64,000 bases of DNA from Lysobacterales bacterium (GCA_022844165.1 JALHMH010000001.1:32001-96000), one strand, 5' to 3'; positions 24,649 to 47,425 are shown, counted from the stretch's first letter. Made by a program: numbers and translations. The notes: a model not told the origin generated them from the letters alone.

Positions 24649-24653
24649 GGCGG

Positions 24654-25046
24654 TCAATACTGCCGACGAAAGGAATCAGATTCTGGCCCAGGCGGGGTGC
24701 GCTCGATCCAGTAGCTGGACGCACCGCGCTTCAGGCGCAGAGCATCCCGCCCGAAAGCGCGGGTTACCATGGCCACCGGCGTGATGAGCAGGAAGAACAT
24801 GGCGCCGAGCACGATCGGGCTGATGATGCGGCCGAGTAGTAGTCCGAATGCCATCCATGCGCGATTGAACGGTGCGAGACGCGTCGGGCGAAACCAGGCG
24901 AGCAGCGCGGTGGTCGTCGCCAGGGCAATCGCAATCGTCAACAGCAGCGCATGCGATCGCCACGCCGCCCACGCCGCGACCAGGGAAAAAACAACGACAA
25001 ACAAAGCGCCAAAACGGCGGTTGGTTGGCAGTGGCGACGATTGCAT
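24654..25046 (-). CDS. SxtJ family membrane protein
   Basis: RRFG, L.PFNRAWMAFG.LLG.I.SP, GRDALRL, SYWI.R, terminal RQY. Confidence 0.82.
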   Translation of the reverse strand: MQSSPLPTNRRFGALFVVVFSLVAAWAAWRSHALLLTIAIALATTTALLAWFRPTRLAPFNRAWMAFGLLLGRIISPIVLGAMFFLLITPVAMVTRAFGRDALRLKRGASSYWIERTPPGPESDSFRRQY

Positions 25047-26669: not shown

Positions 26670-26784
26670 TGTGAATCCTATGACAAGACCAGACCGCGAC
26701 AATACGGCAGCTCAGCGCTGACATCACAACTACTACAACTAAGTGGGTAGTTCCCGGCGACAGATCGCAGGGAATGATAAGGAC

Positions 26785-28578
26785 ATGAAAAGGGCCTTCC
26801 CCACGTTCCAGGTCGATCAATCGCGACGCCGCAAGCGCATGCGGACGGTTCTGCGGGGCGGCCGCTTTAGTTGGAACACTGGACTCTTCCGCGGAGCGAC
26901 GGACTTGAACGAATTGCCAGCCGCGCTACTTGAATCGGACGGCGAGCTGCTTGCGGCAATTCTTGAAGCGCTGCCGACGATGCTGATGGTCTTCGATCGG
27001 ACTGGCAAGCTGCTGCGCGTCAATCGTTCCTTTCAGTCCATTGCGGGCTACTCGCCAGACGCCATCGAACATCTGCACTTTTCCAGTCTGTTCGCCGATT
27101 CCAGTGCGCAGTCGCAATGGCAAACGGCCCTGGCCTGCAAGAACTTGAATGCCATCGAGTGCAATGAATACTTGACCAACCGCGCCGGGCGGCGGGTGCC
27201 GCTGGAACTGGCATTGGTGCGAGTGGGCGAGGCGGCCGATTTACGTATCGTGGTCGGCGCCATTGACTTGCGCAGTCAGCGCACGACCGAACGCCATCTG
27301 ATCCGACAGGCCTACTTTGATGCGTTGACGCGATTGCCCAATCGTACGGGTTTCAAACACCAGCTGGCGTTGCGCATTGCCGGCAGTTTTCAGCGCGACG
27401 AGGACTCTCTCGCTGTTGCCGTAGTCGATGTTGCACGCTTTCGCGTCATCAACGATGCGATCGGTCATGACGGTGGCGATGCATTGTTGCAGAGCCTCGC
27501 CAGCCGACTCCAGTCCAACCTCCAGGATGTGGTGATCGGGCATTTGAGTGCCGGCGAATTTGCTGTGATGTTGACCGATGTGCGCAACGAGCGCGACGCG
27601 CTGCGTGTCGGCCAGCGAATCCTTGGATTGTTTCGGGAGGCATTCCTGGTGCGCGGCCAACGCATCGTGCTCAACGCACGCGTTGGTGTGGCGCTGGCCG
27701 ACGCCAGGTCGGACCCCGCGACCGTGATGCGCGATGCCGATTCTGCACTTTTCGAGGCCAAGGAATCCGCTCAGGGTGTGCGTGTCTTCGACCGGTCGAT
27801 GCGCCTCGCCAGCGAAGCACGCCTGCGTCTGGATATCGAACTCCGCGCAGCCGTCGCGCGCGATGAATTTCGCCTGGTGCTGCAGCCGATCGTCCGTGTG
27901 CAGGACGGCACATTGGTCGGGCACGAAGCCCTGGTTCGCTGGGCACATCCAACTGCCGGCGAGCTGCTTCCCGCGCAATTCATCGCGCATGCTGAGCGCT
28001 CCGGGGTTATCTCCGCCATCGACGCCTGGTCGCTGCGAGCTACTCTGGAGTGGCTGGAAGACACGCGAACGGGTCTGTCCTGTAACGTCAATACGTCGGC
28101 GCTGTCGTTGTTGGATCAGGTGTGGTTAAACGATGCCGTACGCCTTCTCGAAGAACACAGCGAAGCGGCAAAACGACTACGCATCGAGATCACCGAAACC
28201 GCGCTGCTTGGCGATGCCCAGATCACTGCTGCGGCGCTGGAGCGATTGATCGGTGCTGGCGCGCAAATCGTCCTCGACGATTTTGGGACTGGCTACTCCT
28301 CGCTCGTGCATCTGCAGAGTTTTCCGATCTCCGGCATCAAGGTCGATCGTTCGTTTCTTGCGCGCCTGGATTCCGATCGGCGGGACCAGACGATTGTTGC
28401 CGCGCTCATCGGTCTGGCAAGCGAACTGGGTCTGACGGTCACCGCCGAAGGCGTCGAGACTGAAACGCAACGTGCTTGTCTGATCGAGCACGGGTGCGAG
28501 TTTGCGCAGGGATATTTATTCGGTCGACCCGCGCCCGCGGCCGCGACCTTGCAGCACTCTCTTGGAGCAATCAAATGA
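26785..28578 (+). CDS. PAS-GGDEF(degenerate)-EAL protein, probable c-di-GMP phosphodiesterase
   Basis: PAS; DALTRLPNR; GGDEF replaced by SAGEF; intact EAL, EITET, DDFGTGYSS, KVDRSF, EGVET, QGY. Confidence 0.88.
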   Translation: MKRAFPTFQVDQSRRRKRMRTVLRGGRFSWNTGLFRGATDLNELPAALLESDGELLAAILEALPTMLMVFDRTGKLLRVNRSFQSIAGYSPDAIEHLHFSSLFADSSAQSQWQTALACKNLNAIECNEYLTNRAGRRVPLELALVRVGEAADLRIVVGAIDLRSQRTTERHLIRQAYFDALTRLPNRTGFKHQLALRIAGSFQRDEDSLAVAVVDVARFRVINDAIGHDGGDALLQSLASRLQSNLQDVVIGHLSAGEFAVMLTDVRNERDALRVGQRILGLFREAFLVRGQRIVLNARVGVALADARSDPATVMRDADSALFEAKESAQGVRVFDRSMRLASEARLRLDIELRAAVARDEFRLVLQPIVRVQDGTLVGHEALVRWAHPTAGELLPAQFIAHAERSGVISAIDAWSLRATLEWLEDTRTGLSCNVNTSALSLLDQVWLNDAVRLLEEHSEAAKRLRIEITETALLGDAQITAAALERLIGAGAQIVLDDFGTGYSSLVHLQSFPISGIKVDRSFLARLDSDRRDQTIVAALIGLASELGLTVTAEGVETETQRACLIEHGCEFAQGYLFGRPAPAAATLQHSLGAIK

Positions 28579-30731
28579 TGGATGGCAGCGACGCCTTGAA
28601 TGATGCGGTCGATTCGTTCGCGCGTGCGAAAGGGCTATTCAGTCCTGCGGCGATGGGCTACTACCAGGGCGCTTTGCAGGCGCGCCAACACCTGGCCAGT
28701 GCGGCAATCATTTTCGACCGGGCTCAGGCGATCGCACGCGATGCGTGCGAGCTGGCCCGACCGTCGTTCGAACGCTCGGGTCTCATGGTGCATGCCGATG
28801 CTCTGGCGAGCGCCGAGCGCGACCTGTGCATGTTTGCTCAGGTGTGCGCGCGCGCATTGACGGGTGCGGATCGCGATCTGGAAAAAGGATACCTGAGGCA
28901 AGTGGCGACAGCCTCCAGCCTCGGTATGGACTTTCACGACTCCAGCCCATTGTTGCTGGGATTCGCCTGGTGCGCGGCTGCCAATCACTTGCAAGGACAA
29001 GCGCTGTGGTGCTTTCGCGCGGCCTGCGAACGGGCACAGTCCGCGTTGCGTAACGCTGCCAGCGGAGCGGCACTCAGCGCAGCGGCAGGCGACATTGGCG
29101 CTGGCGCTTACCCGATGTTGTCATCGGCTCACCCGGAACTGGATCAGATTTACGGCGCTGTGACAGCGGCAAAGTGTCCGCGCGATATGAGCATGATGCT
29201 CGGCACAGCAGCGCACGAATGGCTGGCCGAAGGGCGGCAAACGCCGTTAACCCAATGGATCAGCTGGCTCGTCGCCGCGATCGGGCCGCACGTTGCGCGC
29301 TACAGCGGCGATGTCTGGGGCAGCGTTTTTGCCAGCCTCGCGGCCGCCTCGTTGAGCCGGGTGCCGACGCAACAGTTGCCTGGGTGCGCCGCACCCCTTT
29401 TGGAGATTTCGCTTCACGGACATGCGCTGCGGCGCGCGGTGCATGGTTTGTTGCGTGCCGAAGATGCCGGGCATTTGAGCGCGCGGCGCAATAGCGAATC
29501 GGTAGCGGCTGCCCCCCACCATCAGCAGCGGGTCGCGCGGTTGTTTGCTGCACTCGCTTGCGCCAGCGTTGTGGGCGACCATGCCTATGCCGAGAAAGCG
29601 GTAGCAGACTTGCTCAACGAAGTCCGAACCTCGTCCAGTGAGCCATGTCTGCTCGGCCTTGCGTCGGCAGGCAGCGAAGCGATGGGTGTTGCCTACACGC
29701 CATTCGTCGCGCAGGCAATCGATGCTGGAGTCGATTCGGCGCGTGCGTTCGCCTTGCTACAGGGCGAGTGGCGCCACTTGCCAGACATCGCCAAAGGCGT
29801 CGTAGACCAGCTGAGTTTACCAACGGGTATGTTGCCGTGGCTCACCGGCGTTCTGGCGCTGCTGCTGGAACTGGCGACCAGCCGTTCTGCGCCGCGAGCC
29901 GAGCTTGCTCTGGGCGACCGGCTTCTGGCGGATTTCCTGGGGCTTTCGGGCAGCACGCCGGCCATTGAGGCGCAAGCCTTGCGTGCGCTGGCCGCTCGAG
30001 TACGCGAACATCCGGCCTCTGCCGTGGCGCGCCTAAGCACCTTGTTAAGCTCGCTGGGCGCAATGACCGACCGTTGGGAAGTGGTCTTTGTGATGCGCGC
30101 GGCAAGCAATCGCGGCGATGCCAGCGAATCCTGGACCGGGGCACTGTCCGCGCGCCTGGCCGTCGTATTGATCAATAACGCAAGCGAAAATTCCATTGCA
30201 GACACCGTGCATTGGTTGGCGACGGCATGGGTACCCCACGTGCGCTTCGCCCTGCCCGAACAATCGCCAGAGGTGCTGGCCGCGCCGGCGATTGCAGAGC
30301 TTCAGGCGCAACTGCCCATAGAGCAGCACGGTCGAATTGCGCAGCTCGCCGAGGGCATCGCCGATGCGGCGACCGCCCATGCGATGCTGGCAAACGCCGA
30401 TGCCTGGTGTGCTCAAGCGGTTGCGGAGATGCGAACGCGACCGAGCTTTGCGTCAGTGCGTGGGATTGAGACCAGGTGCATCCGCGATCTGACCATTTTG
30501 CTCAAGTCGATCGCTTGTTTCCTGGGCTCAGGACTTGGCGATGTTCCTATACGAGTTCGCGCATTTGCAGCGGCGCACTTGTTGCCGTTCCTACAAGAAG
30601 AAACGCGCAACTTCGGCACTGAACTGGTTGCAGTGTTGCAGGCGCAGATGGCACAACTGAGCGGCACGTCGCGCAACCGGGTCGCAGCGCTCCTGGCCTC
30701 AGTTTATCAACACGACGGTGCCCCGCAATGA
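28575..30731 (+). CDS. Large protein with several phycobiliprotein-like (BBAG-type globin) repeats
   Basis: Phycobiliprotein-like N-terminus; helix-E-like motifs SAERDL, KCPRDM, RCIRDL; ATGA-coupled at both ends. Confidence 0.6.
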   Translation: MMDGSDALNDAVDSFARAKGLFSPAAMGYYQGALQARQHLASAAIIFDRAQAIARDACELARPSFERSGLMVHADALASAERDLCMFAQVCARALTGADRDLEKGYLRQVATASSLGMDFHDSSPLLLGFAWCAAANHLQGQALWCFRAACERAQSALRNAASGAALSAAAGDIGAGAYPMLSSAHPELDQIYGAVTAAKCPRDMSMMLGTAAHEWLAEGRQTPLTQWISWLVAAIGPHVARYSGDVWGSVFASLAAASLSRVPTQQLPGCAAPLLEISLHGHALRRAVHGLLRAEDAGHLSARRNSESVAAAPHHQQRVARLFAALACASVVGDHAYAEKAVADLLNEVRTSSSEPCLLGLASAGSEAMGVAYTPFVAQAIDAGVDSARAFALLQGEWRHLPDIAKGVVDQLSLPTGMLPWLTGVLALLLELATSRSAPRAELALGDRLLADFLGLSGSTPAIEAQALRALAARVREHPASAVARLSTLLSSLGAMTDRWEVVFVMRAASNRGDASESWTGALSARLAVVLINNASENSIADTVHWLATAWVPHVRFALPEQSPEVLAAPAIAELQAQLPIEQHGRIAQLAEGIADAATAHAMLANADAWCAQAVAEMRTRPSFASVRGIETRCIRDLTILLKSIACFLGSGLGDVPIRVRAFAAAHLLPFLQEETRNFGTELVAVLQAQMAQLSGTSRNRVAALLASVYQHDGAPQ

Positions 30732-33700
30732 GCGTGCCGAGTTCACCTCTTCGCGGTTGTTTCGCCTCTAGTAGCGCGGCTGGACTCAGCGCACGCCTGC
30801 GCGCCGTGCATTCTGTGGCCATCGCCCGGGAACTGAGCGTGCTCAGCGCCTCGTTGCGCAATGGCAACAGCGAGGAGTTGGGCGATCTGACCGAACTTGC
30901 CGACGGCGATGCGTTGGCCGAAGTTCTGGATGAGCTTGCCAGGCGCCTGACCACGCCTGAGCAGATCGCTGCGCAACCGATGCCGGCCTGGGTCAGCATC
31001 GCGCAGCGTTCGCGGGACTATGTCGATATCGACGATTTGTCGCCGCTGGTGGAGCGCATTGTGGCGCGTATCGCGCGCCGCGTCGCACCCGGAACCCGTA
31101 GCTTCGTTGAACTCTATGTTTGGGAAGCGCAGGCAGCATTCGAGGTGTTTCGACAACGCTTTCAGATCGCGCAGGATATCGATGCCATCGTTGCCGAAGT
31201 GTTTGCCGGGCTGGCCCATGCAATGCGCCTCCTCGATGAAGACGCGAGCCAGGTGGATCTGGAGGAGTTGCAAAGCAGCTTCGCGCAAGTCTTGCGCGAG
31301 TGGACGAAGCTGTTGAGCGACATGGGCGCAGTGGTCGATCTGGAACTGATCAGACTCTTCGTCAACGAACTTGCGGTTCGCTACCGCTTGAGCCCGCGGA
31401 TATGGTCGTTGCTGATTTTGCGCCTCGATCGCGCGTTTTCGGTGCGCGCCGATAACCGCCTCGAACACGTCTTCGGCGATGCGATCGAGGGCTTGCTCGG
31501 TGCTACGCAACGGTTCGATTTCTTGCGCGATCTGCGCAGCGACGGGTATGCCTATTTGCCACCGGACGCCGAGTTGTGGGGCGATCTGGTCAGCGTGATG
31601 ATTGTCGTTTCGCTACGTCCGGGCTCGCGCCTGGAAGCGCGTTCGGCGCGGGCTTTGAATTTGGCGGCCGTCAGCGATCTGGTCGGCGGGCGTTGGGACG
31701 ATTTCGAGCAAGCCGTTCGCCTCGGCTCGGCCGGCCTGCGCAATCGCTGGGAGCGCAATTTCCTGGACTTGTACACGGCGGGGTCAGCGCGCCTGCTGAC
31801 GGTCGCCAAAGTTGCCAGTGAGCTGGCAGCGCAGGACTTGAGTGCAGTCCACGATCCGTCTGTCGAAACGTTGCTGCTGAAGGCGCGCGCAGCGATCGTA
31901 CTGGGCGCTGATGTGCCTGCTCAGCGCAGTCTGTTTCGTGTTGGCCTTTCGCAGGTGATCGAATTGCCCAATCGCTCGCAGTTGCGCGTACTCGCGCAGC
32001 AGGCGTCCGGCGGCGATGCCGAACTGAATTCCGCACTCAAGGATCTATTTGAGCTGGCGCAGGTGTCGGGACATCAAGCCGAAGACCTGGCGCCAGCTGC
32101 GGCCGGTCTGCTCGCACAGATGGTTGCGCCGAACGACCCTGCCGTGGCGTGTCTATTGCAATTATTCGCCGGCATGCATCGCATCTTCGACGAGCACGAA
32201 GCGCGCGCCGAACTGCGGGCACATATGGCGCGGACGCTGCTCGAGGGTTGGCAGACTCGCGCCGGATCGGAGTTGACCGCCCTGCATGCGGCGCTCAGTT
32301 TCCTGCGCGCCAGCGCGCACTGGAAAAACAGTCAGCTCGCAAAGCTGATGATCGCCTTCGAGCCATCGCTGCGTTCGGTTTCGGCCGCGGTCAAAATTTC
32401 CAGAGTGGCCGCTGAACTTGCCGATCAAGCCAGCGCTGCGGTCCTGCGCGACTATCCGCATTACGCCGAACGAATTGGCGAAAGCGGTTGCGCCGCGACG
32501 CGCCGTGACAACTACTTTACCGTCTTGCGGCTGGCACAAGTTCTGGGTGGGGCCAACGCATCGCCCAAAGAAACGATGGTGTGGTGGTGGTTGAGCACGA
32601 TCGGCGTCTATCTGCGCAATCGCGATCAGTCTGTGATGCAAGGCAACCTGCGCGCCATCGTGCACGCGCTGACGCCGCATTTAAGAGTCGAAGAACTGCT
32701 GATCTGCAGCGATATCCTGACGGCCGTGTACCGGAAGGGATTGGCAATCGACATCCCGCGCGATCTGGGCGTCGGATCGGTGTTGAACTTTCGACAAATG
32801 GCCGAGCGCGGCCCGTTATGGCGTAGCGCGTTCACCATGCGCCGTGCCGCATCGCCCCACCACGGCCTGCTCGGCGACTACTTGAAAACTTACGCCGCGG
32901 CCGACACCGAAGGCGCGGCTGTGATCGATGTTTGGCGCAACTTCGCGGCACAGTGGCAGGCGCTGGGCGATCCGGCGATGGCCTGGTCGGAACTGTCGGC
33001 ACAGGTGTCCCAGGCGATCCGCGCCGTGGGCGCGAATCGGTTGCAGTCGGCTTGGGTTCGCGAGCTGCGAGTATTTGGCGCGATGCCCGAATGCGCCATG
33101 CACCATTTGTTGTTGGCGCAAGGCCTGGAGCGAGTGCAACTGGTGGCCTTTGGGTTGAACCTGGCGCCGCGCATCGCCGAGTTGTCTGCATTGATGGGAC
33201 GCTCAGCGCATGTTCTGCCGGAAACGCCAGAAGGTCGCGGCGAGTTGTTCGCGCACAAGGGCGAGCGTGACCTGGCGCTACTGCTGAATGTGTTGGCGGA
33301 GGCCTGCTGCAGTGGCGATCAAGGTCTCGCAACACTGAATGCTGGACGCTATCTGCTCGAGTGTATCCTGCCCTACGTTCCGTTCTCCGAACAGAGCTGG
33401 GCTTCGGTTTGGGCGGTTGCACTCGCGGAACTCCTGCCGACGTCGTGCGCACCGGTGTCGGCCGCGGCGCAGCGCTGTTTTGCGCTGCTCAATGCCCTCA
33501 CCCGCCAGGCGGATATGCTACGTGCGGTAGGGCAGGAGATTTTTGTCCCCACCTTGCCGGTGTTTTCCGACGATCCGGCACAGGAGGCAGAGTGGCGTGC
33601 GCTGGCCTCCGGGTTAATGGTGGCCGCTGCGGCTGCAGACGCTGGTCTGCCGGGGGAGGCGCTGGCGCAGAGTCTCGCGCTGGCGACTCCATTGTTTGCA

Positions 33701-34576
33701 GAGCAGGCAGTCACCTTGTGGCAGGAAGCCAAAGCGCCGCTTTGTGCGTTGCTTGGAAAATCGCTGTCGCCCAGTTTGCGCTCTGCGCTCGACGGCGTCT
33801 GCGCCGCGCTCGACCGCACGCTTGGCGCCGAACGGATTTTTCAAGGCGCTCCGGCGAGCTCGGCCCTGGATCTGGCATTGGCGCTACGCAGCGCCGACCC
33901 GTACTCGCTGGCGATCTGGCGCTGCGATCGCGTTACGCGGGTGCAGCGGGAAGGTCTGACCACACCGCTGCCGGGGGATCTGACCATGTCCCGCGCAAGC
34001 GGTTGGCAGTGCCCAGAAATGCTCGCCATTCGCCGCGCGATTTCCCACCTCAGCGAATGCACGGCGCTAGCGCCACAGAATGCTGCGCCGGGCCGGCAGG
34101 ACTTCCAGCTCGGGTTACAGCGCCTGGCCTGGTCTACCGCATTCCTGCGCGATGGTATGGGCAACGCACTGGCGCCATGGCTGACGAGCTCGTTGCTCGG
34201 CGGCGAGTGGTACGCACTCGATCTGCCGACGCTCGTGGCGTGGTCCGAGGCATGCATCGGTGAACTCGACGAGCGCTTCGGCGACGACTCGACGCTGGTC
34301 GCGCGGCTGCATGAGGCACTGGCCAGCCTTTGGCTGCCAACCGCTGCCACTCAAAGCGCTGCGGAGCTGCCGGTACGTCAGGGCAATGCACTTGAGCAAC
34401 GGAGTCTTGCCAGTTTTCTGCTGGGTCAGTCCGCACCCAATACACCAGAAGAATCAGCCCGCGGGATGGCGATCGTTCATGCCTCCGGTTGGTTTCAACG
34501 ACTCACCACCTCGCATCAAGCCAGGGTAACGTCGGCGCTGCGCGCAGGTCGCTACCGCGGGAGCCTGCCGGCATGA
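30728..34576 (+). CDS. Very large alpha-helical protein with degenerate phycobiliprotein-like repeats
   Basis: 1282 aa; motifs CAATRRDNYFTV and KGERDLALLL, each followed by a W/Y..I.PY/VY helix as in the upstream gene; ATGA-coupled. Confidence 0.5.
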   Translation: MSVPSSPLRGCFASSSAAGLSARLRAVHSVAIARELSVLSASLRNGNSEELGDLTELADGDALAEVLDELARRLTTPEQIAAQPMPAWVSIAQRSRDYVDIDDLSPLVERIVARIARRVAPGTRSFVELYVWEAQAAFEVFRQRFQIAQDIDAIVAEVFAGLAHAMRLLDEDASQVDLEELQSSFAQVLREWTKLLSDMGAVVDLELIRLFVNELAVRYRLSPRIWSLLILRLDRAFSVRADNRLEHVFGDAIEGLLGATQRFDFLRDLRSDGYAYLPPDAELWGDLVSVMIVVSLRPGSRLEARSARALNLAAVSDLVGGRWDDFEQAVRLGSAGLRNRWERNFLDLYTAGSARLLTVAKVASELAAQDLSAVHDPSVETLLLKARAAIVLGADVPAQRSLFRVGLSQVIELPNRSQLRVLAQQASGGDAELNSALKDLFELAQVSGHQAEDLAPAAAGLLAQMVAPNDPAVACLLQLFAGMHRIFDEHEARAELRAHMARTLLEGWQTRAGSELTALHAALSFLRASAHWKNSQLAKLMIAFEPSLRSVSAAVKISRVAAELADQASAAVLRDYPHYAERIGESGCAATRRDNYFTVLRLAQVLGGANASPKETMVWWWLSTIGVYLRNRDQSVMQGNLRAIVHALTPHLRVEELLICSDILTAVYRKGLAIDIPRDLGVGSVLNFRQMAERGPLWRSAFTMRRAASPHHGLLGDYLKTYAAADTEGAAVIDVWRNFAAQWQALGDPAMAWSELSAQVSQAIRAVGANRLQSAWVRELRVFGAMPECAMHHLLLAQGLERVQLVAFGLNLAPRIAELSALMGRSAHVLPETPEGRGELFAHKGERDLALLLNVLAEACCSGDQGLATLNAGRYLLECILPYVPFSEQSWASVWAVALAELLPTSCAPVSAAAQRCFALLNALTRQADMLRAVGQEIFVPTLPVFSDDPAQEAEWRALASGLMVAAAAADAGLPGEALAQSLALATPLFAEQAVTLWQEAKAPLCALLGKSLSPSLRSALDGVCAALDRTLGAERIFQGAPASSALDLALALRSADPYSLAIWRCDRVTRVQREGLTTPLPGDLTMSRASGWQCPEMLAIRRAISHLSECTALAPQNAAPGRQDFQLGLQRLAWSTAFLRDGMGNALAPWLTSSLLGGEWYALDLPTLVAWSEACIGELDERFGDDSTLVARLHEALASLWLPTAATQSAAELPVRQGNALEQRSLASFLLGQSAPNTPEESARGMAIVHASGWFQRLTTSHQARVTSALRAGRYRGSLPA

Positions 34577-35046
34577 GACAGATCAAATTTCGCGCCGATC
34601 AATCCACGGTTTCGTTGCAAACCGACACCCGACTTCTCGATGCGCTCTTGGCGCATCAAGTGCCGGTGAAGATGGTCTGTGGTGGTCGCGGTTTGTGCGC
34701 TACCTGTCACGTGTACGTCACCGCCGGCGAAGCCAGCCTCACCCCTGCATCGCAGCGCGAACAGTTGGCTCTGAGCGTACTCACCGGCGCTCAGAGCAAC
34801 AGTCGGCTGTCGTGTCAGGCACGGGTGATCGGCGATGGTGTGGAAGTGGCGCTTCCCGATGGCATGTACGTCGAGTCGTTTACTGAACTGGAATCGTTGA
34901 TCGGGCAGCGCACGTCGATGCCGATCTTGCATCCGGTGACCGGCGAGACGCTGGTCGAGGCGAACAAAATCATCATTCGCTCTTCAATCATGCAACTGAA
35001 GGACGTCGATTTCAGTATCGGCGACGTCGGCACGTCCAGGGCATGA
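34573..35046 (+). CDS. 2Fe-2S ferredoxin with C-terminal extension (Slr0148/Fd5-like)
   Basis: CGGRGLCATCHV...RLSCQ; tail LIGQR...ILHPVTGETLVEANKII.RS. Confidence 0.88.
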   Translation: MRQIKFRADQSTVSLQTDTRLLDALLAHQVPVKMVCGGRGLCATCHVYVTAGEASLTPASQREQLALSVLTGAQSNSRLSCQARVIGDGVEVALPDGMYVESFTELESLIGQRTSMPILHPVTGETLVEANKIIIRSSIMQLKDVDFSIGDVGTSRA

Positions 35047-35090: not shown

Positions 35091-35750
35091 ATGGCTATCG
35101 ATCCAGTACTAGGCGGCGTCCAGGGTTTCCACAATTACTACACGCCCGACGAGTTTTTTCGCCACGATCCCACGGAGGGCTCGATTTATCTGCGCGATGG
35201 CCAGCGCGCGGCCAAGATTTCCGAGGCCTTCATCAACGGACTGCACACCGGAATCGAAGAGGAAGTCGGCAACAGCTCAGGACTGCTGATGTATCGGTGC
35301 GGTCAAGAGTGGGCGCTTGCCGACATGAAACGTTTCTCAGCGCGAATGCGCCAGGAGTTCGGTGGCGGAAAGCTCGACATCTGGCAGATGAACCCGGCTT
35401 TCGTTTGGGAGTGCTGGTGGTGGCCTTTGGCGATCGAAGGATACGGCGGATGGACCTTGGATCTGAGCTTTGCGGACAAGGACATTACGCTGATCGAAAT
35501 CCGCAACTCGGCCGTCGCCAAGTCCATGAAGATGGTCGGCCGCCCGGTCTGCCACATGTACGCGGGGTTGTTTGCCGGCGCCTTCAGCTTTTTTCACCGC
35601 AAGGAGCTGCAGAGCATTGAGGTGCAGTGTTACGCGATGGGCAACGACGTCTGCAAGTTCCTGGTCGGCGACGAGAAACGCGTCAACGCTGCAGAATTCT
35701 GGCGAGAAGAGGGTGCCAGCGCGCAAACCATTCGGGAAAATCTCGCCTGA
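35091..35750 (+). CDS. V4R domain protein (Slr0144-like)
   Basis: GIEEEVG, WWWP...GYG.W, SAVA, PVCHMYAGLFAG, EVQCYAMG..VCKF. Confidence 0.88.
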   Translation: MAIDPVLGGVQGFHNYYTPDEFFRHDPTEGSIYLRDGQRAAKISEAFINGLHTGIEEEVGNSSGLLMYRCGQEWALADMKRFSARMRQEFGGGKLDIWQMNPAFVWECWWWPLAIEGYGGWTLDLSFADKDITLIEIRNSAVAKSMKMVGRPVCHMYAGLFAGAFSFFHRKELQSIEVQCYAMGNDVCKFLVGDEKRVNAAEFWREEGASAQTIRENLA

Positions 35751-35762
35751 GGCGGAACATCC

Positions 35763-37928
35763 ATGATGACAACTCCTAACAGTCAATTGCTTGAACTCGG
35801 CGCTTTCTTTCGCGAAGTTGTCGAAGGCATCGCCGATAGCCAGGCCGGGCGTCGCCCCCCACCTAAGGCCGAGATGCCGACTCTTGATGGCGCTGTGCTG
35901 CTCGACTCGATGCGGGCGATCGTTACCGAGGAACTGCAAGGACTGGCCAGGACGCAGCCACTGCTCGGAAGTGATGATGCCGCGCTACGCGAGGCCCAGG
36001 CCGTGGCCGCCGACAGCGCGCGCCGTATCGAAGAGCTTGAGCTTGCCCACCAGCAGCGCGAGTTGGCGCTGCGCCAGCAGTTGCACGAACGCTACGAGGA
36101 GCAACTGCAAGCCGAACGCAGTCGCCAGGCGCTGGTTGACGAGCGAGTCATCACGCTCGAAAACCGGTTGGATGTCAACGAGACCACCAGACAAAGTCTC
36201 GAATCCGAGCTTCGTGAGCGCAGCGATTTGCTGGCGGTGCTGCGTTCCGAGCTCAACCACATGCATGAGCAGGCGCAGCATCTGGAGCGCAACCATGCGC
36301 TACTGGTCGGCCAGATCGATGAACAAACCGAGCGCGATCGCCAGCGGCAGGCGGAGTTCGATGCTTGCCAGGCGCAACGGGACGAAGCGCTGCGGGCGTT
36401 TGCGCTGCAGGAAGACACCGTCGCTGTCTTGAATGCCGAGCTGGAACAGGCGCGCAACGATCGGCAATCTCAACAGACCAGCGCCAACAGCCTGCGGCTT
36501 GAGTTCGAAGCGAAATTCGAAGAGCGAGAATCGGAAGCGCTGCACATGCTGCTGGCCGCAGAGCAGCGCGCGCGTGAGGATCGTCAGACGTACATAGAAC
36601 AGATCCATCAGTTGACCGAAGCGCTCGATGCCGAGCAACTGCAAAATGCGCAACTCAAGGACGCGATTCTGGTGCTGGAGGCGCAGGCCGAAAACGCTTC
36701 AGACGTGCAGGCATTCGCAGCGGAATTCCAGGCCAAAGACCAACAGCAACAATCCGAACTGAGCGAATTGCGCGAGGCACTGAAGGCCGGGCAAGAGCTC
36801 GCCGAACAGCTTCAGAGCGAACTCGCGTCGGTGCAAACCGCTGCGGTTGCAGACGCAGAGAGGTTGGCGGAGCAACTGCGAGTACGAGAAGAAGAACTGC
36901 AAGTCAAGACCGCCGAATTGGATGGCGCACTGCTCGGCGAACACGCACGCACCGCTGAGTTGCAAGCCGAAATCGCGACACTGCGCGAAGCGCTCGATTC
37001 CGAATCAGCAGCGCGTGCCGCTGACCGAGCACTTCTCGAGGCGCAGCTCAGCACGGAACAAACGCTTACCGTGCAGCTGCAGGCCAACATCGCGCGCCTT
37101 GAGCAAGAGGCACAACACCGGCAGCAGGCCGACGATCGACGCTCGGAATTGACTCAGGCGTTGGATGCCGAGAGAGCGCAGACCGCTCGTCTGAAGACCG
37201 AGATCCTGCAGTTCGAAGCGCGCGTAGCAGCGGCTGCCGAAGCGAACACCAGAATGCTGGCCGCGGTGCAGGAGCTGAGCAGCAAACAATTGCTCGAACT
37301 TGGCAGCGCGCTGAAATCTGAGCAGACATTGACTGCGCAACTGTTGGCCGACATTCAGGCATTGGAAGCACGATCGAATGAGCAGGATCTGGCGCTGGCG
37401 CAAGCGCAAGCGGCTGCCGATGCCGATCGTCACGCACGGCTCGAAGCGCAAGCCGCAGCTCAGGCGCGGGAGCAGGCGCTGATCGAAGCACGCTCGCAGT
37501 TGCAAGCGCTCAACGACCAACAAGAGGCGTCCAGGAAGCGCGCGTCAGTGGGATTCCTGGCGGGGCTTGGAGAGACACCGCCGGTTGATGCATCGCCGAG
37601 CGCAGCGCAGGCTGCCATCGCCGCTGCACCTGTCGCCCCTGCTCCTGTGGCCGCTGCGGTACAAGCCGCTGTAGCACCGATGAGCGCTGTGGAGTTAGAG
37701 CGCGAACAGAAGCGACTGGCGATTCTGAGCCAAAGTACCGATGTGGCCACGGCCAAACTCTATTTCCAGATGCTGCCCTGGCAAGGACTCAAGACCTCTC
37801 GAATTTCTGTTGCCGCAAATGAAAGGGGCGACCCCAGTGGCACGCTCGCTGGTTTTGCTGTCGCCGCCGCTACCCAACAGGCAATCGATTCCAGTCTTTC
37901 AACTCAACCGACGAAGGCCAGACCATGA
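35763..37928 (+). CDS. Long coiled-coil protein with internal repeats
   Basis: E/Q/L/A-rich heptads over about 500 aa; five L..AL..E...TA.L...I..LE repeats. Confidence 0.75.
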   Translation: MMTTPNSQLLELGAFFREVVEGIADSQAGRRPPPKAEMPTLDGAVLLDSMRAIVTEELQGLARTQPLLGSDDAALREAQAVAADSARRIEELELAHQQRELALRQQLHERYEEQLQAERSRQALVDERVITLENRLDVNETTRQSLESELRERSDLLAVLRSELNHMHEQAQHLERNHALLVGQIDEQTERDRQRQAEFDACQAQRDEALRAFALQEDTVAVLNAELEQARNDRQSQQTSANSLRLEFEAKFEERESEALHMLLAAEQRAREDRQTYIEQIHQLTEALDAEQLQNAQLKDAILVLEAQAENASDVQAFAAEFQAKDQQQQSELSELREALKAGQELAEQLQSELASVQTAAVADAERLAEQLRVREEELQVKTAELDGALLGEHARTAELQAEIATLREALDSESAARAADRALLEAQLSTEQTLTVQLQANIARLEQEAQHRQQADDRRSELTQALDAERAQTARLKTEILQFEARVAAAAEANTRMLAAVQELSSKQLLELGSALKSEQTLTAQLLADIQALEARSNEQDLALAQAQAAADADRHARLEAQAAAQAREQALIEARSQLQALNDQQEASRKRASVGFLAGLGETPPVDASPSAAQAAIAAAPVAPAPVAAAVQAAVAPMSAVELEREQKRLAILSQSTDVATAKLYFQMLPWQGLKTSRISVAANERGDPSGTLAGFAVAAATQQAIDSSLSTQPTKARP

Positions 37929-38530: not shown

Positions 38531-39229
38531 ATGAGCGCGATGATGAATCAAGCACCAGTCTTGCCAGAAGCCGGCGGCACCGCGTTGACCGCCGGTACGT
38601 CCAGTGCGCGTTTTGCTTCCATGTTGGAGATCGATAGTCTGAACTTCGATTTGTACGAAGGCACGGTGGTCGACCCCAGCGATACCCGCAGCATCTTCCT
38701 GGCAACCGACATTTTGCGTGGCATCCACGCCGCTTTGTCCTATGAAGCTGGCCAGGCTTGGACAATCGTGCTCTATCGCTGCGGTTTTTTATGGGGACAA
38801 AAGACCCTGCGGCATTTCGTGCGCCAATCGCAAGGCGCCTTCGGCGCAAAGTTCGAGCAGATCAGCGTCGACGTTTTCTTGAGCAACCTGATCACTTTCA
38901 TGAACTTCAATGGCTGGGGTGTGCTCAGCATCGACATGCAGCGCGCGACGACGCATGGCGTGCTCCGCATGGAGTTGCGCAAGAGCATTTTCGCCGATGC
39001 CCTCGACCATCTCCGCGAACGCGTGGACTTCATGGTCGCTGGAATGCTGGCTGGCGTATTCAGCGACCTGTCGCGCGCCAGCCTGGCGTGCATTGAAGTA
39101 AGTTCTTCGCTGACCGGCGGCTCGAACTCTGTGTTCCTGTTGAGCGCCAGCGAGCGCATTGAAGCGCTGCGCCCGGCATTGGAAGGCGGCGCCGACGAAC
39201 GCGAGCTGATCGAGCTTCTGTGTGGCTGA
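38531..39229 (+). CDS. Second V4R domain protein (Slr0147-like)
   Basis: GIHAAL..EAG.A...VLYRCG..WG, GWG, SIFA, AGMLAGVFS. Confidence 0.8.
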   Translation: MSAMMNQAPVLPEAGGTALTAGTSSARFASMLEIDSLNFDLYEGTVVDPSDTRSIFLATDILRGIHAALSYEAGQAWTIVLYRCGFLWGQKTLRHFVRQSQGAFGAKFEQISVDVFLSNLITFMNFNGWGVLSIDMQRATTHGVLRMELRKSIFADALDHLRERVDFMVAGMLAGVFSDLSRASLACIEVSSSLTGGSNSVFLLSASERIEALRPALEGGADERELIELLCG

Positions 39230-41162
39230 GTTCGACGCCATCCCGGAGCGATATGAGGTGCTCGGCGAATTGGCGACCGGGGCGCAAGGTGTTGTGTTGC
39301 GTGCTCGCGATCGACACAGCGGCAGTGCTGTGGCCATTAAGCAGTTTTCGATCGGTGCGCGCACCGCTTACCTGCGGGAATTGGCGGCATCGCTCGACAA
39401 TCGGCACGACAATCTGCTGACGCCGCTGGATACGTTCTACGGCGCGGACGGCGTCGGGTTCGTGGTTTACGAATTCCTGGAAGCAGGTACCTTGCGCCAG
39501 GCGATGACGCCTGGGAAACCGTTCGCCTCACTTCTAATCCTCCGTTGTGCGGAAGATCTGCTCAAGGCCTTGGTCAACTTGCACGATCGCAAGTTGATTC
39601 ACTGCGACATCAAACCAGAGAACATTTTCGTCCGGCACAATGCGCAAGGTCAGATGGAGTCGTTCTTGCTGGGTGATCTCGGATCGACCTGTTCTATACG
39701 CGAGGCTGAAGAGGGCGACTACCGCAGCGGGTCGCCCGCCTACACAGCGCCCGAGCGCTTCTATCAGAAGTTTCAGCCCAATAGTGATCTGTATAGCCTC
39801 GGCGTTCTGCTGTTCGAATTGGCCAGCGGTAACTTGCCCTTTATCGGAGGCCCAAAAGCCATGGCGCGCGCGCACCTGCAACAGCCCGTTCCGCTGAATC
39901 AAATCCAGTCTTCTCACCTGCGCACCTTGATCGGCGGGCTGATGGAAAAGGAACCATCGCGACGGATCGGCTCAGCAAAAAGAGCATTGCAAATGCTGAA
40001 CCCAGAGGACGCGGTACAGGGTCCATCGAATTTGCCCATTTCGAATGCTGACTTAAGAACACCAGTGAATAAGCCTACGCAAAAGCAAGCCAATATCGGC
40101 CGACGCCCTCCGATTGAAGTGGCGAGCACCATCATCGAGTCCGGTTTCGCCCGTTTGCACATCGCGAGCGTTGGCGATAAACCCTTGTTGCTGGTCGAGT
40201 CCAGTACCGATCTGGCAACCCTGGCTCTGGCGCCACAATCGCGCCCGCGCCTGTTCCCGAAATCGGGAAACGCACGACTGCTGGGTACGTCGGAGTTGCT
40301 TTACCAGGTCGAATCGTCGATCAACCTGTTGAACTTGAGCAGCGGCGCCAATCGCGTGCTGCACGACCGCTGTGTCGGCGCCATCGATTTTACCTGCGAC
40401 GGGCAACGGTTGCTCTGGCGGACGCGGCGCAGCGCGCATCGGATAGACCTGGAAACGCGTGCCGAGAGTTCGTTCTTGCTGGCGCACTATCTGCTGGATG
40501 CCCGCTCGCACTTGCTTCCGAGCGGCAGCTTCGCGGTCTCAACCGGGGCCATGAACAACCAGATTGCGCTTCGCAGCAGCGACGGCACAGCGAAGGCGGT
40601 GCACGAACTGGATGGTCCGGTCATCGAGATCGTCAACGATTTGGAGACTTTGCTGGCGCTGACGCTTAACGTCAATCAGGCGGACAGCCTGACGCTGTGG
40701 CGAATCTCCGAGTATTCCAAACCCCAACGTCTGGATGTCCCGACCGGCTCGCGCTTTTTTGCGACCACACCAGGTCACATATTCTGGCTCGACAATGGCA
40801 CCCAGATCGTACAGTGCGGCATAGGTCTTGCGCCGCGCGAGGTTTTCAGGGCGGGCGAGTCGATCGACGGCTTCGCGATCTCGCCGGATCATGCCTGGCT
40901 CGCGACCTGGAGCAATCTCGGTGACAACGTCTCACGAGTTCGGGTCTATTCCGCGGCGAATGCCAACGAGGCCGTGTCCCGGAGCGATGAGCGCAGTCAG
41001 CTTCGCGCACCGCCAGGCAAGGAATCCCTGCTCCGTTCGACAGAATCGATGCCACCGGCGGCGCAGGTGAGCGTCAAGAGAACGAGCAATCCGGTTGAAC
41101 ATTCGACTGGATCGACAAGAACCCGCTCCGTCAACGACTCCAGCGAGACGCACACGCCATGA
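39222..41162 (+). CDS. Hanks-type Ser/Thr protein kinase with C-terminal beta-rich domain
   Basis: GAQGVV, VAIK, HCDIKPEN, DLG, YTAPE, DLYSLG. Confidence 0.9.
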   Translation: MAEFDAIPERYEVLGELATGAQGVVLRARDRHSGSAVAIKQFSIGARTAYLRELAASLDNRHDNLLTPLDTFYGADGVGFVVYEFLEAGTLRQAMTPGKPFASLLILRCAEDLLKALVNLHDRKLIHCDIKPENIFVRHNAQGQMESFLLGDLGSTCSIREAEEGDYRSGSPAYTAPERFYQKFQPNSDLYSLGVLLFELASGNLPFIGGPKAMARAHLQQPVPLNQIQSSHLRTLIGGLMEKEPSRRIGSAKRALQMLNPEDAVQGPSNLPISNADLRTPVNKPTQKQANIGRRPPIEVASTIIESGFARLHIASVGDKPLLLVESSTDLATLALAPQSRPRLFPKSGNARLLGTSELLYQVESSINLLNLSSGANRVLHDRCVGAIDFTCDGQRLLWRTRRSAHRIDLETRAESSFLLAHYLLDARSHLLPSGSFAVSTGAMNNQIALRSSDGTAKAVHELDGPVIEIVNDLETLLALTLNVNQADSLTLWRISEYSKPQRLDVPTGSRFFATTPGHIFWLDNGTQIVQCGIGLAPREVFRAGESIDGFAISPDHAWLATWSNLGDNVSRVRVYSAANANEAVSRSDERSQLRAPPGKESLLRSTESMPPAAQVSVKRTSNPVEHSTGSTRTRSVNDSSETHTP

Positions 41163-41803
41163 CCAACCACACTGCGCCCGCCATCAATGGCGCCACGCCC
41201 TCCGTGCATTGCGTCTTTTACACTCACCCGTGGGCCATCGATGCGCTGCGGGTTGCCAAACTTGGCGAACTGGATCGGACGCTGCTCATCGAACTGGCGC
41301 GGCGCTCGCAACTGGCGAGCTTGATCAACACCCAACAACAGCTGCGGTCTGGCGTGAGCGGCATCCTGCGCGATCCCGGTGAACTCGACGGGCTGATCGT
41401 CACGACACCGCGGTTCCTGGTACCCGTGATCCTTGCGCCCAATCCTTGCGTGCCGGATGCAACACAAGCCTCGGCGATCGCTCTTTTGCCATCCGTGAAG
41501 TCGAGCTTCAATCGCTTCATCGTGTTTGTACATCTGTCAGAGGCAATGAACTTCCGCTACGCGTATCCGTATTGCGATCGTTTTTCGTTTCTCTGGGACG
41601 TCGCAGACCCTCCGATGTTCAAAATGGGCGATATCGGCGCGATGCTGCGCGATCTGGGTGTGCTCAGGCGCGAATCCTGGGGAGGATTTTACTTGTTCAA
41701 TCATCCACGGCGGCATGTGAGCAATCTGGACAGCCGGCTGAGCGAATTGCGAAAGGTGATGGGGCAGGCGAAAAAGCCCAGCGCTCTCGCCGCAACAGCC
41801 TAA
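41159..41803 (+). CDS. Hypothetical protein
   Basis: ATGA-coupled to the kinase, fills the operon gap; no motif recognised. Confidence 0.7.
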   Translation: MTNHTAPAINGATPSVHCVFYTHPWAIDALRVAKLGELDRTLLIELARRSQLASLINTQQQLRSGVSGILRDPGELDGLIVTTPRFLVPVILAPNPCVPDATQASAIALLPSVKSSFNRFIVFVHLSEAMNFRYAYPYCDRFSFLWDVADPPMFKMGDIGAMLRDLGVLRRESWGGFYLFNHPRRHVSNLDSRLSELRKVMGQAKKPSALAATA

Positions 41804-41814
41804 GGCCCGCGAGC

Positions 41815-42300
41815 ATGTGGGACTTAAAACACGGCTTGGGAATTTCCGCACTTCCGACCCGGTCGTCGCTCAGGCTGTTTAAGACCCTGGGATTCACCGA
41901 TCTGGTCAACGTCTCCGGCAGCGCAACGGAAAACTTGTACCTGGCAGCCGATCTCGATGGTTTGGCCTTCAGCGACTATCCATTTGCCGATGTACTCTCG
42001 ACCGCTGGCGCGGTTACGGAAATCGTTGAGAAGCTTGGTCCGGCCGGGCTGTTGGAGTTTAAGAAGGCTGCAACTCAAACCGCCAGCTGTCTGCAGCAGC
42101 AGCGTCGCGTCATCGTGTTTTGCCACCTCGGCGTTGGGCGTTCACCGGCCGTCTCGACGATTGCTTTGATGCTCGGGCGGGGCTATTCGTTAGACGAAGC
42201 TGTTGATGTGATCGTGAAGTTGCGACCCGAGGCGGTTCTTAGCGACCCGGTCGTTGCATTTGTCCAACGGATGCATGCGGAACTCGTGAGTGCCGCATGA
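41815..42300 (+). CDS. Dual-specificity (Cys-based) protein phosphatase
   Basis: CX5R loop VFCHLGVGRS, upstream PFAD acid loop, EAV..I..LRP. Confidence 0.82.
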   Translation: MWDLKHGLGISALPTRSSLRLFKTLGFTDLVNVSGSATENLYLAADLDGLAFSDYPFADVLSTAGAVTEIVEKLGPAGLLEFKKAATQTASCLQQQRRVIVFCHLGVGRSPAVSTIALMLGRGYSLDEAVDVIVKLRPEAVLSDPVVAFVQRMHAELVSAA

Positions 42301-42980
42301 CGCTCAATAGCGTACTTGAGCGCAGTACGGAGCTGGCCGTCGCTGCCGGCTTCAGGCGAAAGCCGCTCGATCCCGAACTGGCGCAGGCGGAAAAGCCTCT
42401 GCCCAGCGGCAACCTCAGCTGTAACGCGCAAAGCTGGGAGGCCGATGCCGCTGAGCTGCGCGTGGTGTCGATCGAATCGCCCAAGATCCAGGTGATTTCC
42501 TGTTTCGTCTATCCGCATTCGGCCATTGCGTTGCCGCTTTATGCCATGGAGTTGGTACAGCTCGGCGCAAAGCCCATCGTTGCGGTCATCGATGCGGTAG
42601 CGCCAGCGCACGACCCTGCGCAGGCCATCGCACAAAACTGGCTGGAGCAAGCGCATTGTGTGTATGCCGACCTCAAGAATGCCGACGATCCTCCACCGTG
42701 GTTTCAAGCGTGTCGCAGCGGTCTGGACTTTTTCATCCGCCCTGGTGACCAGACGGAATTGCGACGCGTCGGTTCCTTGCACGTCGAGCTGCTGGGGCGG
42801 TACTTGCACGCGATCCCCGATGCCTCGCAGAGGACGGTTGCCGCTGCCCACCGCTACGAAGAATTTTCGCGCCACTACAAAGATCATCATGCCGCGAATT
42901 CGCCGGGTTTACCGTTGATGCAGAAGTCCTTCGGCCCGCAGTGGACGGAGCGTTTCATGCAGCAGTGTTTCTTTCTTTAG
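42297..42980 (+). CDS. Ferredoxin-dependent bilin reductase (PcyA/pre-PcyA-like)
   Basis: QVISCFVYP...LPLYAMELV...VAVID, PPPWF, Y...Y, PG...MQKSFG.QWTERFM...F. Confidence 0.78.
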   Translation: MTLNSVLERSTELAVAAGFRRKPLDPELAQAEKPLPSGNLSCNAQSWEADAAELRVVSIESPKIQVISCFVYPHSAIALPLYAMELVQLGAKPIVAVIDAVAPAHDPAQAIAQNWLEQAHCVYADLKNADDPPPWFQACRSGLDFFIRPGDQTELRRVGSLHVELLGRYLHAIPDASQRTVAAAHRYEEFSRHYKDHHAANSPGLPLMQKSFGPQWTERFMQQCFFL

Positions 42981-42990: not shown

Positions 42991-44163
42991 ATGCATCGTT
43001 ATCGATATCTGATCATCGGCGGCGGGATGGCCGCAGATTCGGCGCTCAAGGGCATTCGCATGTCCGACCCCACGGCTCAAGTGGGGCTGGTGTCCGAAGA
43101 ACTGGACAAACCCTATAACCGCCCGCCGCTGTCGAAAAAGCTCTGGGATGGACTTCCATTGGAGGAAATCTGGCGCCCGAATCGCGGCTCCCAAGTCAAC
43201 TTGCATCTGGGCCGGCGTATCGTCGCGCTCGTCCCCTTGCGCAAGCAGGCGCGCGATCAGACCGGCGAGATCTACGCCTTTGAACAAGCACTGCTGGCCA
43301 TCGGCGGCAGCCCAAAGCGCATCTCAGGCGATGACGAATCCGTCATGTATTTCCGCACACTCGCCGATTACCGACGCCTGCGCGCGTTGTCGCGCGAGGC
43401 CGAACCGATCACGCTGGTTGGCGCCGGGCTGATCGGCACCGAACTTGCCGCGTGTCTGCGCAAGGCGGGTTCTTCGGTCGATCTTTATTGTGGAAAACGT
43501 GGTCTTGTTCGGTCGATTCTGCCCGAAGTCTTGTCTAATGAACTGGCGCGAAGCCTTGATGGGCATGGCGTTCGGCTGCACTTCTTGAGCGTCTCGAACA
43601 TCCAGAAGGCAAACGGCACCCAACAACTCAAGCTGAGCGACGGAAAAATGGTGACGGCCAAACGCGTCGTCGCCGGTCTGGGCCTGGTCGCGAACACGCA
43701 ACTGGCCAAAGATGCCGGCATCGTGTGTTCCAATGGCATCGACGTAGATGCCTCGCTCAGAACGTCGATACCTGGCATATATGCCGCCGGCGATTGCGTG
43801 AACTTCTGGTGCTCAACCCTGGGTCGGCGACTGAGTTCGCAGCATGAAGAACACGCCAATTTTTCGGGTATCGCTGCCGGTCGCGCGATGGCTGGAAAGA
43901 CGGTCGACTACTCGCCGTTGCCGTACTTTTACTCACGCGTTTTCGATCATGCATACGAGGGGATTGGCTGGGTCGATACGTCGCTCAAACACCATGTCGT
44001 GGCACCGCGAGGACCGATGGAGGCTACGGTTTATTATCTGCACGACAACCGCGTCGTCGGCGTGTTGTATTGGAATACGCGGGCCGATCTGGAGCGGGCC
44101 ACCGAGCTTATCGAGGCCAAACGTCCGTGCACGCCAGCCGAGCTGGTCGGTCAGATCCAGTGA
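42991..44163 (+). CDS. FAD-dependent NAD(P)H oxidoreductase (ferredoxin reductase-like)
   Basis: IIGGGMAA, PYNRPPLSK, GAGLIGTE, TS.PGIYAAGD, PYFYS. Confidence 0.88.
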   Translation: MHRYRYLIIGGGMAADSALKGIRMSDPTAQVGLVSEELDKPYNRPPLSKKLWDGLPLEEIWRPNRGSQVNLHLGRRIVALVPLRKQARDQTGEIYAFEQALLAIGGSPKRISGDDESVMYFRTLADYRRLRALSREAEPITLVGAGLIGTELAACLRKAGSSVDLYCGKRGLVRSILPEVLSNELARSLDGHGVRLHFLSVSNIQKANGTQQLKLSDGKMVTAKRVVAGLGLVANTQLAKDAGIVCSNGIDVDASLRTSIPGIYAAGDCVNFWCSTLGRRLSSQHEEHANFSGIAAGRAMAGKTVDYSPLPYFYSRVFDHAYEGIGWVDTSLKHHVVAPRGPMEATVYYLHDNRVVGVLYWNTRADLERATELIEAKRPCTPAELVGQIQ

Positions 44164-47394: not shown

Positions 47395-47425
47395 TTTTTA
47401 CATCCGAAGGATGAGGTTACGAAGA

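Follow-up and report, generated by a model that had tools for sequence, protein, structure and literature searches.

Introduction

Phycobiliproteins are single domains of ~160–170 amino acids (aa) that pair as alpha and beta subunits and build rings, and the core-membrane linker ApcE consists of one phycobiliprotein domain followed by linker repeats. Chains with several globin domains are known from animals, where the multi-domain haemoglobins of invertebrates, such as the nine-domain chain of Artemia, are haem-binding oxygen carriers. How phycobiliproteins arose from the bilin-binding globins of heterotrophic bacteria is a question that has come up recently and is still open, and both the pre-PcyA type of bilin gene cluster and its single-domain globins, the bilin biosynthesis-associated globins (BBAGs), have already been published (Rockwell, Martin and Lagarias 2023, PMC10151467, cited here, like PMC13446030, for its main text). 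Here we describe P0001, a 718-aa protein in which about five globin units from the phycobiliprotein/BBAG branch are fused and which is encoded in a 64,000-nucleotide stretch of a Lysobacterales bacterium genome (GCA_022844165.1 JALHMH010000001.1:32001-96000; the whole stretch is called the window below).

In the C-x-R-D motif of these proteins the Cys links the A ring of the bilin, while R and D form hydrogen bonds with the chromophore; BBAGs of pre-PcyA clusters bind bilin without lyases, are photoinert and have a fluorescence yield of 3–7%, unlike antenna proteins (PMC10151467). A pre-1 enzyme yields 3(E)-phytochromobilin (PMC13446030 and preprint). Photoglobins carry C-x-Q-D instead (PMC10151467), are without the N-terminal helix pair and occur together with domains that bind B12 (PMC8717448, in its passages on photoglobin). 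P0001 resembles BBAG-1 in being a phycobiliprotein-related globin with K/R-[C/A]-x-R-D that is encoded together with an Fe-S protein, two V4R proteins, a ferredoxin-dependent bilin reductase (FDBR) and a haem oxygenase. The BBAGs of the window's family, however, are single domains of ~194–238 aa, whereas P0001 has ~five units in 718 aa, two of them degenerate. Its units are fused head to tail, unlike phycobiliprotein subunits, and the genome has no match to a type II reaction centre; unlike ApcE, it has several globin units, and only globin-type fold matches were seen; unlike photoglobins, it carries C-x-R-D, the helix pair is present in its first unit, and no B12-binding domain turned up when the cluster was scanned with Pfam. 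With the invertebrate haemoglobins it shares the presence of several globin domains in one polypeptide, but it is bacterial and belongs to the phycobiliprotein branch. Multi-globin chains are not described in the main texts of PMC10151467 and PMC13446030, the only papers found on clusters of this type, and the words 'tandem', 'multidomain' and 'fusion' are absent from these texts, although the figures or supplements of these papers may show large open reading frames (ORFs). One ORF, MCH8539434, which separates the haem oxygenase gene from the other genes of an Opitutales cluster, is mentioned there without description (PMC13446030).

P0001 is built of repeated globin-type units

The P0001 gene (Table 1) is an open frame without internal stop that translates into 718 aa plus the stop codon. 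Its start is supported, since homologues also begin at MDGSD, GGAG lies 8–11 nucleotides 5′ of the start codon and the stop of the upstream PAS-GGDEF-EAL gene overlaps this start in an ATGA. Translation reproduced exactly the frame and the positions of SAERDL, KCPRDM and RCIRDL, with both Cys codons, that a first-pass annotation of the window had given, and places C-x-R-D at aa 201–204 and 635–638 and A-x-R-D at aa 80–83. The annotation had listed SAERDL but had missed that it marks a third, Cys-less pocket, at which two of the 15 relatives carry C-x-R-D. The helix motif that it had described as recurring downstream could be located three times (SWLVAAIGPHV from aa 230, HWLATAWVPHV from aa 546 and AFAAAHLLPFL from aa 663); the first and last copies begin 29 and 28 residues past their Cys, but HWLATAWVPHV has no x-R-D partner. 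The two C-x-R-D motifs compare with an average of 0.044 when the protein was shuffled 5000 times, two being reached in 0.1% of the shuffled versions, while the RD dipeptide alone is unremarkable (5 observed versus 2.3 ± 1.4 expected). For these sites, motif conservation carries more weight than the chance statistics.

Profile comparisons tied three parts of the chain to phycobiliproteins. When a profile of 14 family members was compared with the sequences of the PDB, 32 of the 36 matches at E ≤ 10 were phycobiliproteins, and these fell on three separate regions: profile positions 21–112 (ApcB3, E 0.0082), 138–225 (E 0.087) and 586–720 (best E 6.6e-4, phycocyanin alpha). The other four were unrelated (E ≥ 0.57). 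A profile of eight close members gave six matches at E ≤ 10, four of them phycobiliproteins, and a profile of the middle region (A4) gave none at this threshold. The Pfam family PF00502 (Phycobilisome protein; curated cut-off 22.2 bits) was listed at E ≤ 1 for 11 of 13 P0001 relatives. Eight of these scored below the cut-off and three above it, namely P0006 (25.1 bits) and P0011 (28.2 bits), which match through their second unit, and P0013, whose last unit covers profile positions 20–150 of 155 (45.5 bits, E 1e-11).

The same regions were recovered with the neighbouring single-domain BBAG. A profile of 14 BBAG sequences (alignment A3) aligned three times to the P0001 family, at aa 135–291 (E 1.1e-4), 568–693 (E 0.073) and 4–129 (E 0.35), and to the G2 unit alone with an E of 1.8e-5. 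In all three alignments the BBAG sequence K-A-P-R-D falls on the x-R-D motif, and both C-x-R-D sites line up with the K-[A/C]-x-R-D position in the BBAG family. Repeats within the chain were assessed by hhalign, using sub-alignments of A2 (14 sequences, 19–70% identity to P0001) against reversed and 20 column-shuffled targets, for which the null peaked at 13–20. Scores exceeded this null, whose maxima were 13–18 for the four pairs of units, for G1–G2 (aa 1–140 versus 130–300; 30.4), G1–G5 (1–140 versus 565–718; 37.2), G2–G5 (130–300 versus 565–718; 41.7), G4–G5 (440–600 versus 601–718; 28.7) and BBAG versus aa 130–300 (39.0). They were marginal for aa 130–300 versus 440–590 (20.8), 295–445 versus 565–718 (22.4) and BBAG versus 565–718 (20.6), and not above the null for aa 295–445 versus the first two units or for BBAG versus aa 1–140. 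Single-unit profiles scanned over the chain gave a five-fold periodicity, at ~aa 9–164, 131–284, 249–445 (weak), 416–613 and 572–716.

Predicted fold and number of units

An AlphaFold2 model of the full-length protein (14 sequences; predicted local distance difference test score, pLDDT, 87.4; predicted template modelling score, pTM, 0.88) is all helical, with 35 helices. Among the 50 best rows of an exhaustive VIA-align comparison with 48,161 chains, nearly all were phycobiliproteins or globins and none was a solenoid, the non-globin helical fold against which the first-pass annotation had set its proposal. By this comparison, G1 has a globin-type fold with an extra N-terminal helix pair; aa 392–500 also score as globin-like by fold. 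In a separate model of aa 280–595 (6 sequences, pLDDT 78), VIA-align matched aa 515–595 to generic helical pieces only. Long helices cross the unit borders in the full-length model (aa 141–169, 282–306, 376–413 and 582–619), and the sequence-derived unit ranges overlap at these borders. Judging from the model, the last helix of one unit probably continues into the next.

The evidence is good for three units, namely G1 and G5, for which sequence agrees with a strong fold match, and G2, for which it is mainly sequence. G4, a degenerate unit, is backed by its sequence similarity to G5, and G3 by its fold only, while the region of aa ~392–600 may comprise either a single unit or two. For P0001 as a whole, a count of about five fits best, which bears out the proposal of four to five fused globin domains in the first-pass annotation.

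Conservation of the x-R-D motifs

A word-indexed search of 5.8 billion proteins returned eight matches, P0001 itself among them, and an exhaustive HMMER search of 1.84 billion representatives returned ten at E ≤ 0.001, including P0001 and three fragments. With one member added from a metagenome locus, the family comprises 15 distinct full-length proteins of 717–767 aa and is therefore small and of near-constant length. Among 401 genomes of the same class, only the source genome contained a member, apart from two 20-bit partial matches that we did not count as relatives, and none of the 39 matches in a pattern search of genome contigs (alignment A1) was a relative. A search for longer, fused forms found none, which is weak evidence by the search tool's own rating, and NCBIfam has no family for P0001, for the adjacent 1282-aa protein or for the BBAG.

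Only 25 columns of alignment A2 are invariant, and 22 of them lie in the units with x-R-D, G1, G2 and G5. They include R82, L84, K200, R203, D204, R637 and D638, that is, every R-D residue except D83. At site 1, R82 is present in all 15 members and D83 in 13, with N in the other two, while the Cys position is occupied by Ala in 11, by Cys in two (P0013 and P0016) and by Phe or Tyr in two. Site 2 has Cys in 12 members and Ala in three, next to the invariant K200, R203 and D204 of A2. At site 3, R637 and D638 occur in 15 of 15 members, together with Cys in 13, Ala in one and Ser in one.

The gene cluster around P0001

The genes around P0001 form a pre-PcyA-type bilin cluster, with Fe-S protein, two V4R proteins, BBAG, FDBR and haem oxygenase, of the type published in PMC10151467. 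ATGA overlaps chain its first four genes, from GGDEF-EAL through the 718-aa and 1282-aa genes to the Fer2 ferredoxin gene, whose start was placed at 34573 on the basis of the overlap and of 157-aa homologues. The FDBR scored 44.5 bits against the NCBIfam PcyA model (cut-off 206). In the BBAG family (A3) the Cys position holds Ala in 11 of 14 members and Cys in three, and among the globin-type proteins examined in the cluster C-x-R-D was seen only on P0001. The 1282-aa protein has at least two G2-like units, at aa 775–938 (E 6.8e-6) and aa 544–674 (E 1.4e-3), whose sites are Cys-less (GERDL at 845–849 and TRRDN at 591–595).

Two further observations concern the neighbours. The 721-aa protein is rich in Gln, Glu and Ala and has, by its sequence, a coiled-coil look; its counterparts elsewhere range from ~265 to 1131 aa. 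The minus-strand genes at the right of the cluster encode PAS_2, GAF, PHY, HisKA, HATPase_c and Response_reg domains, a GerE domain and a Heme_oxygenase domain (4.7e-11), and with its receiver-bearing bacteriophytochrome, LuxR-type regulator and haem oxygenase this block represents a second bilin-dependent light sensor adjoining the cluster.

Table 1. P0001, its globin units and motif sites, and the genes of the surrounding cluster (window coordinates)
Feature	Position	Strand	Basis or remark
PAS-GGDEF-EAL gene	26743..28578	+	Pfam EAL 3.4e-63, GGDEF 1.6e-29, PAS; ATGA overlap with P0001
P0001 gene	28575..30731	+	Open frame; 14 further full-length relatives (720-767 aa); all-helical AlphaFold2 model
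G1, aa ~9-160	28599..29054	+	Phycobiliprotein-type, including N-terminal helix pair
Site 1, SAERDL	28809..28826	+	aa 79-84, S79 codon 28809; Cys-less x-R-D pocket motif of G1
G2, aa ~135-285	28977..29429	+	By sequence nearest of the units to BBAG and phycobiliproteins
Site 2, KCPRDM	29172..29189	+	aa 200-205, Cys201 codon 29175; in G2
G3, aa ~280-400	29412..29774	+	Globin-like on predicted fold only; without x-R-D
G4, aa ~440-600, boundaries uncertain	29892..30374	+	Degenerate, without x-R-D; contains HWLATAWVPHV
G5, aa ~575-718	30297..30728	+	Globin unit; site 3
Site 3, RCIRDL	30474..30491	+	aa 634-639, Cys635 codon 30477; in G5
1282-aa paralogue	30728..34576	+	Start overlaps P0001 stop (ATGA); weak PF00502, E 0.051
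2Fe-2S ferredoxin	34573..35046	+	Pfam Fer2 3.5e-11; ATGA-coupled to 1282-aa gene
V4R protein A	35091..35750	+	Pfam V4R 3.2e-17; kept in related loci
721-aa protein, no family	35763..37928	+	No Pfam/NCBIfam match
BBAG-like single-domain globin, 199 aa	37925..38524	+	PF00502 5.8e-10; KAPRD, without Cys
V4R-like protein B	38531..39229	+	Weak V4R, E 0.052; orthologues in related loci
Ser/Thr kinase	39222..41162	+	Pkinase 4.8e-34
214-aa protein without known family	41159..41803	+	Conserved across loci
Dual-specificity phosphatase	41446..42300	+	DSPc 6.3e-8
FDBR (pre-PcyA-like)	42297..42980	+	Fe_bilin_red 9.7e-17
Ferredoxin reductase	42991..44163	+	Pyr_redox_2 6.5e-44
Bacteriophytochrome histidine kinase, LuxR-type response regulator, haem oxygenase	44209..48848	-	Pfam scan

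Related loci and larger multi-globin proteins

Six metagenome loci encode relatives of P0001, and two of them (L007 and L008) have the same gene order from GGDEF-EAL through the kinase. In each of the five loci with upstream sequence (L005, L007, L008, L009 and L011), the gene immediately upstream of the 718-aa one encodes a PAS-GGDEF-EAL protein, and gene order is kept in metagenome and genome loci at 43–70% identity. The BBAG profile led to 12 genome loci, from Xanthomonadales/Lysobacterales, Burkholderiales, Methylococcaceae, Competibacter and Verrucomicrobia. These loci carry, upstream of the ferredoxin gene, the 718-aa and 1282-aa pair (L010 and L011), a single protein of 1331–1397 aa related to the 1282-aa family (L012, L013 and L021) or a single protein of ~2000 aa (L017 and L020), whereas the 7.9 kb upstream of the ferredoxin gene in L015 (Methylococcaceae) hold no large multi-globin gene. 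A large multi-globin gene was accordingly present 5′ of the ferredoxin gene in seven of eight assessable genome loci, four further loci being too short.

The ~2000-aa proteins of Verrucomicrobia (L017:1347-7259 and L020:1386-7388) contain four C-x-R-D motifs each, at matching positions, and several of their units match the G2 and G5 profiles; the L017 protein also matches PF00502 (E 5e-4). We considered whether these proteins are fusions of the 718-aa and 1282-aa chains and rejected this, as they are colinear with the 1282-aa family and contain an internal duplication. The C-terminal unit of the 718-aa family finds its match in the 1282-aa family at almost identical residue numbers, so that P0001 may, tentatively, be a truncated paralogue that corresponds to the first ~730 residues of its 1282-aa neighbour.

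The genes for the Ser/Thr kinase, the 214-aa protein and, in most loci, the dual-specificity phosphatase lie between those for the second V4R protein and the FDBR in loci L010–L021. This arrangement spans Gamma- and Betaproteobacteria and Verrucomicrobia. The word 'kinase' occurs once in the main text of PMC10151467 and nowhere in the preprint of PMC13446030.

Possible function and alternatives

Fold, homology, motif conservation and gene-cluster conservation, as computed above, give the frame for a functional proposal; bilin binding, complex formation and a signalling role of P0001 are what we infer within it. The best explanation as a whole, which we hold with slightly better than even confidence, is that P0001 is a chain of fused bilin-bearing globins acting as a sensory or scaffold subunit in a signalling complex. 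Long helices shared between consecutive units would hold the chain together as a single compact body. Haem oxygenase would make biliverdin, which the pre-PcyA-like reductase would reduce together with the ferredoxin and the ferredoxin reductase of the cluster. The bilin would lodge in the three units whose helix E still has the x-R-D pocket, attached covalently at Cys201 in G2 and at Cys635 in G5, and bound non-covalently, if at all, in G1 (Ala80); G3 and G4, with their pockets lost, would serve as spacers. Loaded P0001 could then reside in a complex with the translationally coupled PAS-GGDEF-EAL enzyme and the 1282-aa paralogue, where it would carry the chromophores and act as the sensory or scaffold subunit of a signalling system that responds to light or redox state and whose outputs would be cyclic diguanosine monophosphate (c-di-GMP) and Ser/Thr phosphorylation.

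Several observations weigh against this proposal. P0001 itself had no PF00502 match at E ≤ 1 in the Pfam scan, and in VIA-align the best structural matches of G5 were haem globins rather than phycobiliproteins. Foldseek, one of the tools suggested in the first-pass annotation, found nothing in the PDB at E ≤ 0.001, either with the full model (best E 0.067, root-mean-square deviation above 25 Å) or with the model of aa 280–595 (best E 0.33). Queries to the ESM Atlas, made with the full chain as well as with aa 130–290, returned only unrelated helical-repeat clusters (0.82–0.89, below the lead threshold). The attachment Cys is replaced in three of 15 relatives at site 2 and in two of 15 at site 3, so covalent linkage is not essential to the family, and the published BBAG-1 was poorly chromophorylated in E. 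coli (PMC10151467).

A serious rival, rather unlikely in our assessment, is that P0001 is a chromophore-free scaffold of ligand-less globin modules, comparable to the non-haem globin of RsbR in stressosomes, which would organise the BBAG, the V4R proteins and the kinase. The R-D pairs would in that case serve folding or protein contacts; yet they stay invariant in relatives with as little as 19% identity, even as the sequence around them drifts, most members keep the Cys at site 2 (12/15) and site 3 (13/15), and every sufficiently long locus links the gene to bilin-synthesis genes. It is less probable that P0001 acts as a bilin buffer or carrier without sensory function, storing the reactive pigment and handing it over to the phytochrome or the small BBAG, or protecting the cell against free bilin. 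Several pockets per chain, a cluster BBAG without Cys, an adjoining bacteriophytochrome gene and the photoinertness of published BBAGs (PMC10151467) would agree with such a role, but covalent attachment through Cys would bar hand-over, and the translational coupling to PAS-GGDEF-EAL in the window, with this gene upstream in all five assessable loci, points to signalling instead. That one or more units, especially G5, are sensor globins binding haem through a helix-F His and responding to O2, NO or redox state seems very unlikely: among the matches listed at E ≤ 1 for 14 members there was no Pfam globin or protoglobin, the sequence matches are phycobiliproteins, and the invariant residue is Leu669, not the adjoining His668. 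At the corresponding pocket position, photoglobin and phycocyanin are reported to have a hydrophobic residue (PMC8717448, in its comparison of the two).

The first-pass annotation had left open whether the chain is a mini-antenna or a sensor, and these two fared differently. A light-harvesting mini-antenna that feeds excitation energy to a photosystem would suit the phycobiliprotein-like units, the N-terminal helix pair of G1 and the several chromophore sites per chain. We nevertheless give this role hardly any credence, because no protein of the 99.97%-complete genome matches PF00124, the family of type II reaction centres, for which a control genome was positive, in a search that did not extend to type I reaction centres and rhodopsins. 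The only PF00502 matches of the genome are the BBAG and the weak one in the 1282-aa gene, and the low fluorescence yield of published BBAGs (3–7%; PMC10151467) likewise speaks against an antenna. The sensor, by contrast, fits, since the operon partners are signalling proteins. The evidence for a sensory or scaffold role lies wholly in the neighbours, namely the c-di-GMP enzyme, the kinase and phosphatase and the phytochrome, and makes that role more likely than an antenna.

A more far-reaching and, in our view, unlikely variant of the proposed sensory subunit is that the 718-aa and 1282-aa chains form a phycobilisome-like, genetically concatenated multi-bilin array used for sensing rather than energy capture, in which several bilins of one rigid body share their excitation or redox state and this is read out through GGDEF-EAL and the kinase/phosphatase pair. 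Gas-vesicle buoyancy would be the likely target of such an array, since a gas-vesicle locus surrounds the entire cluster. In this variant, the two chains and the giant proteins of Verrucomicrobia could perhaps be a relic between single bilin-binding globins and assembled phycobiliprotein complexes.

Wider implications and other features of the window

Fused globin chains, some with up to four C-x-R-D motifs, are a conserved part of many pre-PcyA clusters and may be their main bilin acceptors; if they are, this could explain the poor chromophorylation of BBAG-1. They offer a testable system for the role of bilins in non-photosynthetic bacteria, as well as a natural single-chain multi-chromophore scaffold of possible use in fluorescent-protein engineering.

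The bilin and signalling cluster (26.7–48.8 kb) sits inside a gas-vesicle gene cluster. Its left flank (25935–26702, minus strand) encodes GvpF/L, and its right flank (48989–56071, plus strand) encodes GvpA, a GvpN-like AAA protein, GvpF/L, GvpG, a GvpJ-like protein, GvpK, a GvpA-like protein and a CDC48-type AAA protein. The junction of minus-strand GvpF/L with plus-strand GGDEF-EAL is also found in a metagenome locus (L008:323-1051, minus strand). This context suggests light- or bilin-dependent control of buoyancy.

Elsewhere in the window, 5800–9396 (plus strand) encodes an autotransporter with four DUF11 repeats, and 12167–14929 (minus strand) encodes a 920-aa protein in which an amino-acid kinase domain is fused with ACT domains and an Orn/DAP/Arg decarboxylase domain. 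At 22670–25046 (minus strand), a carbamoyltransferase gene adjoins that of a small SxtJ-like membrane protein.

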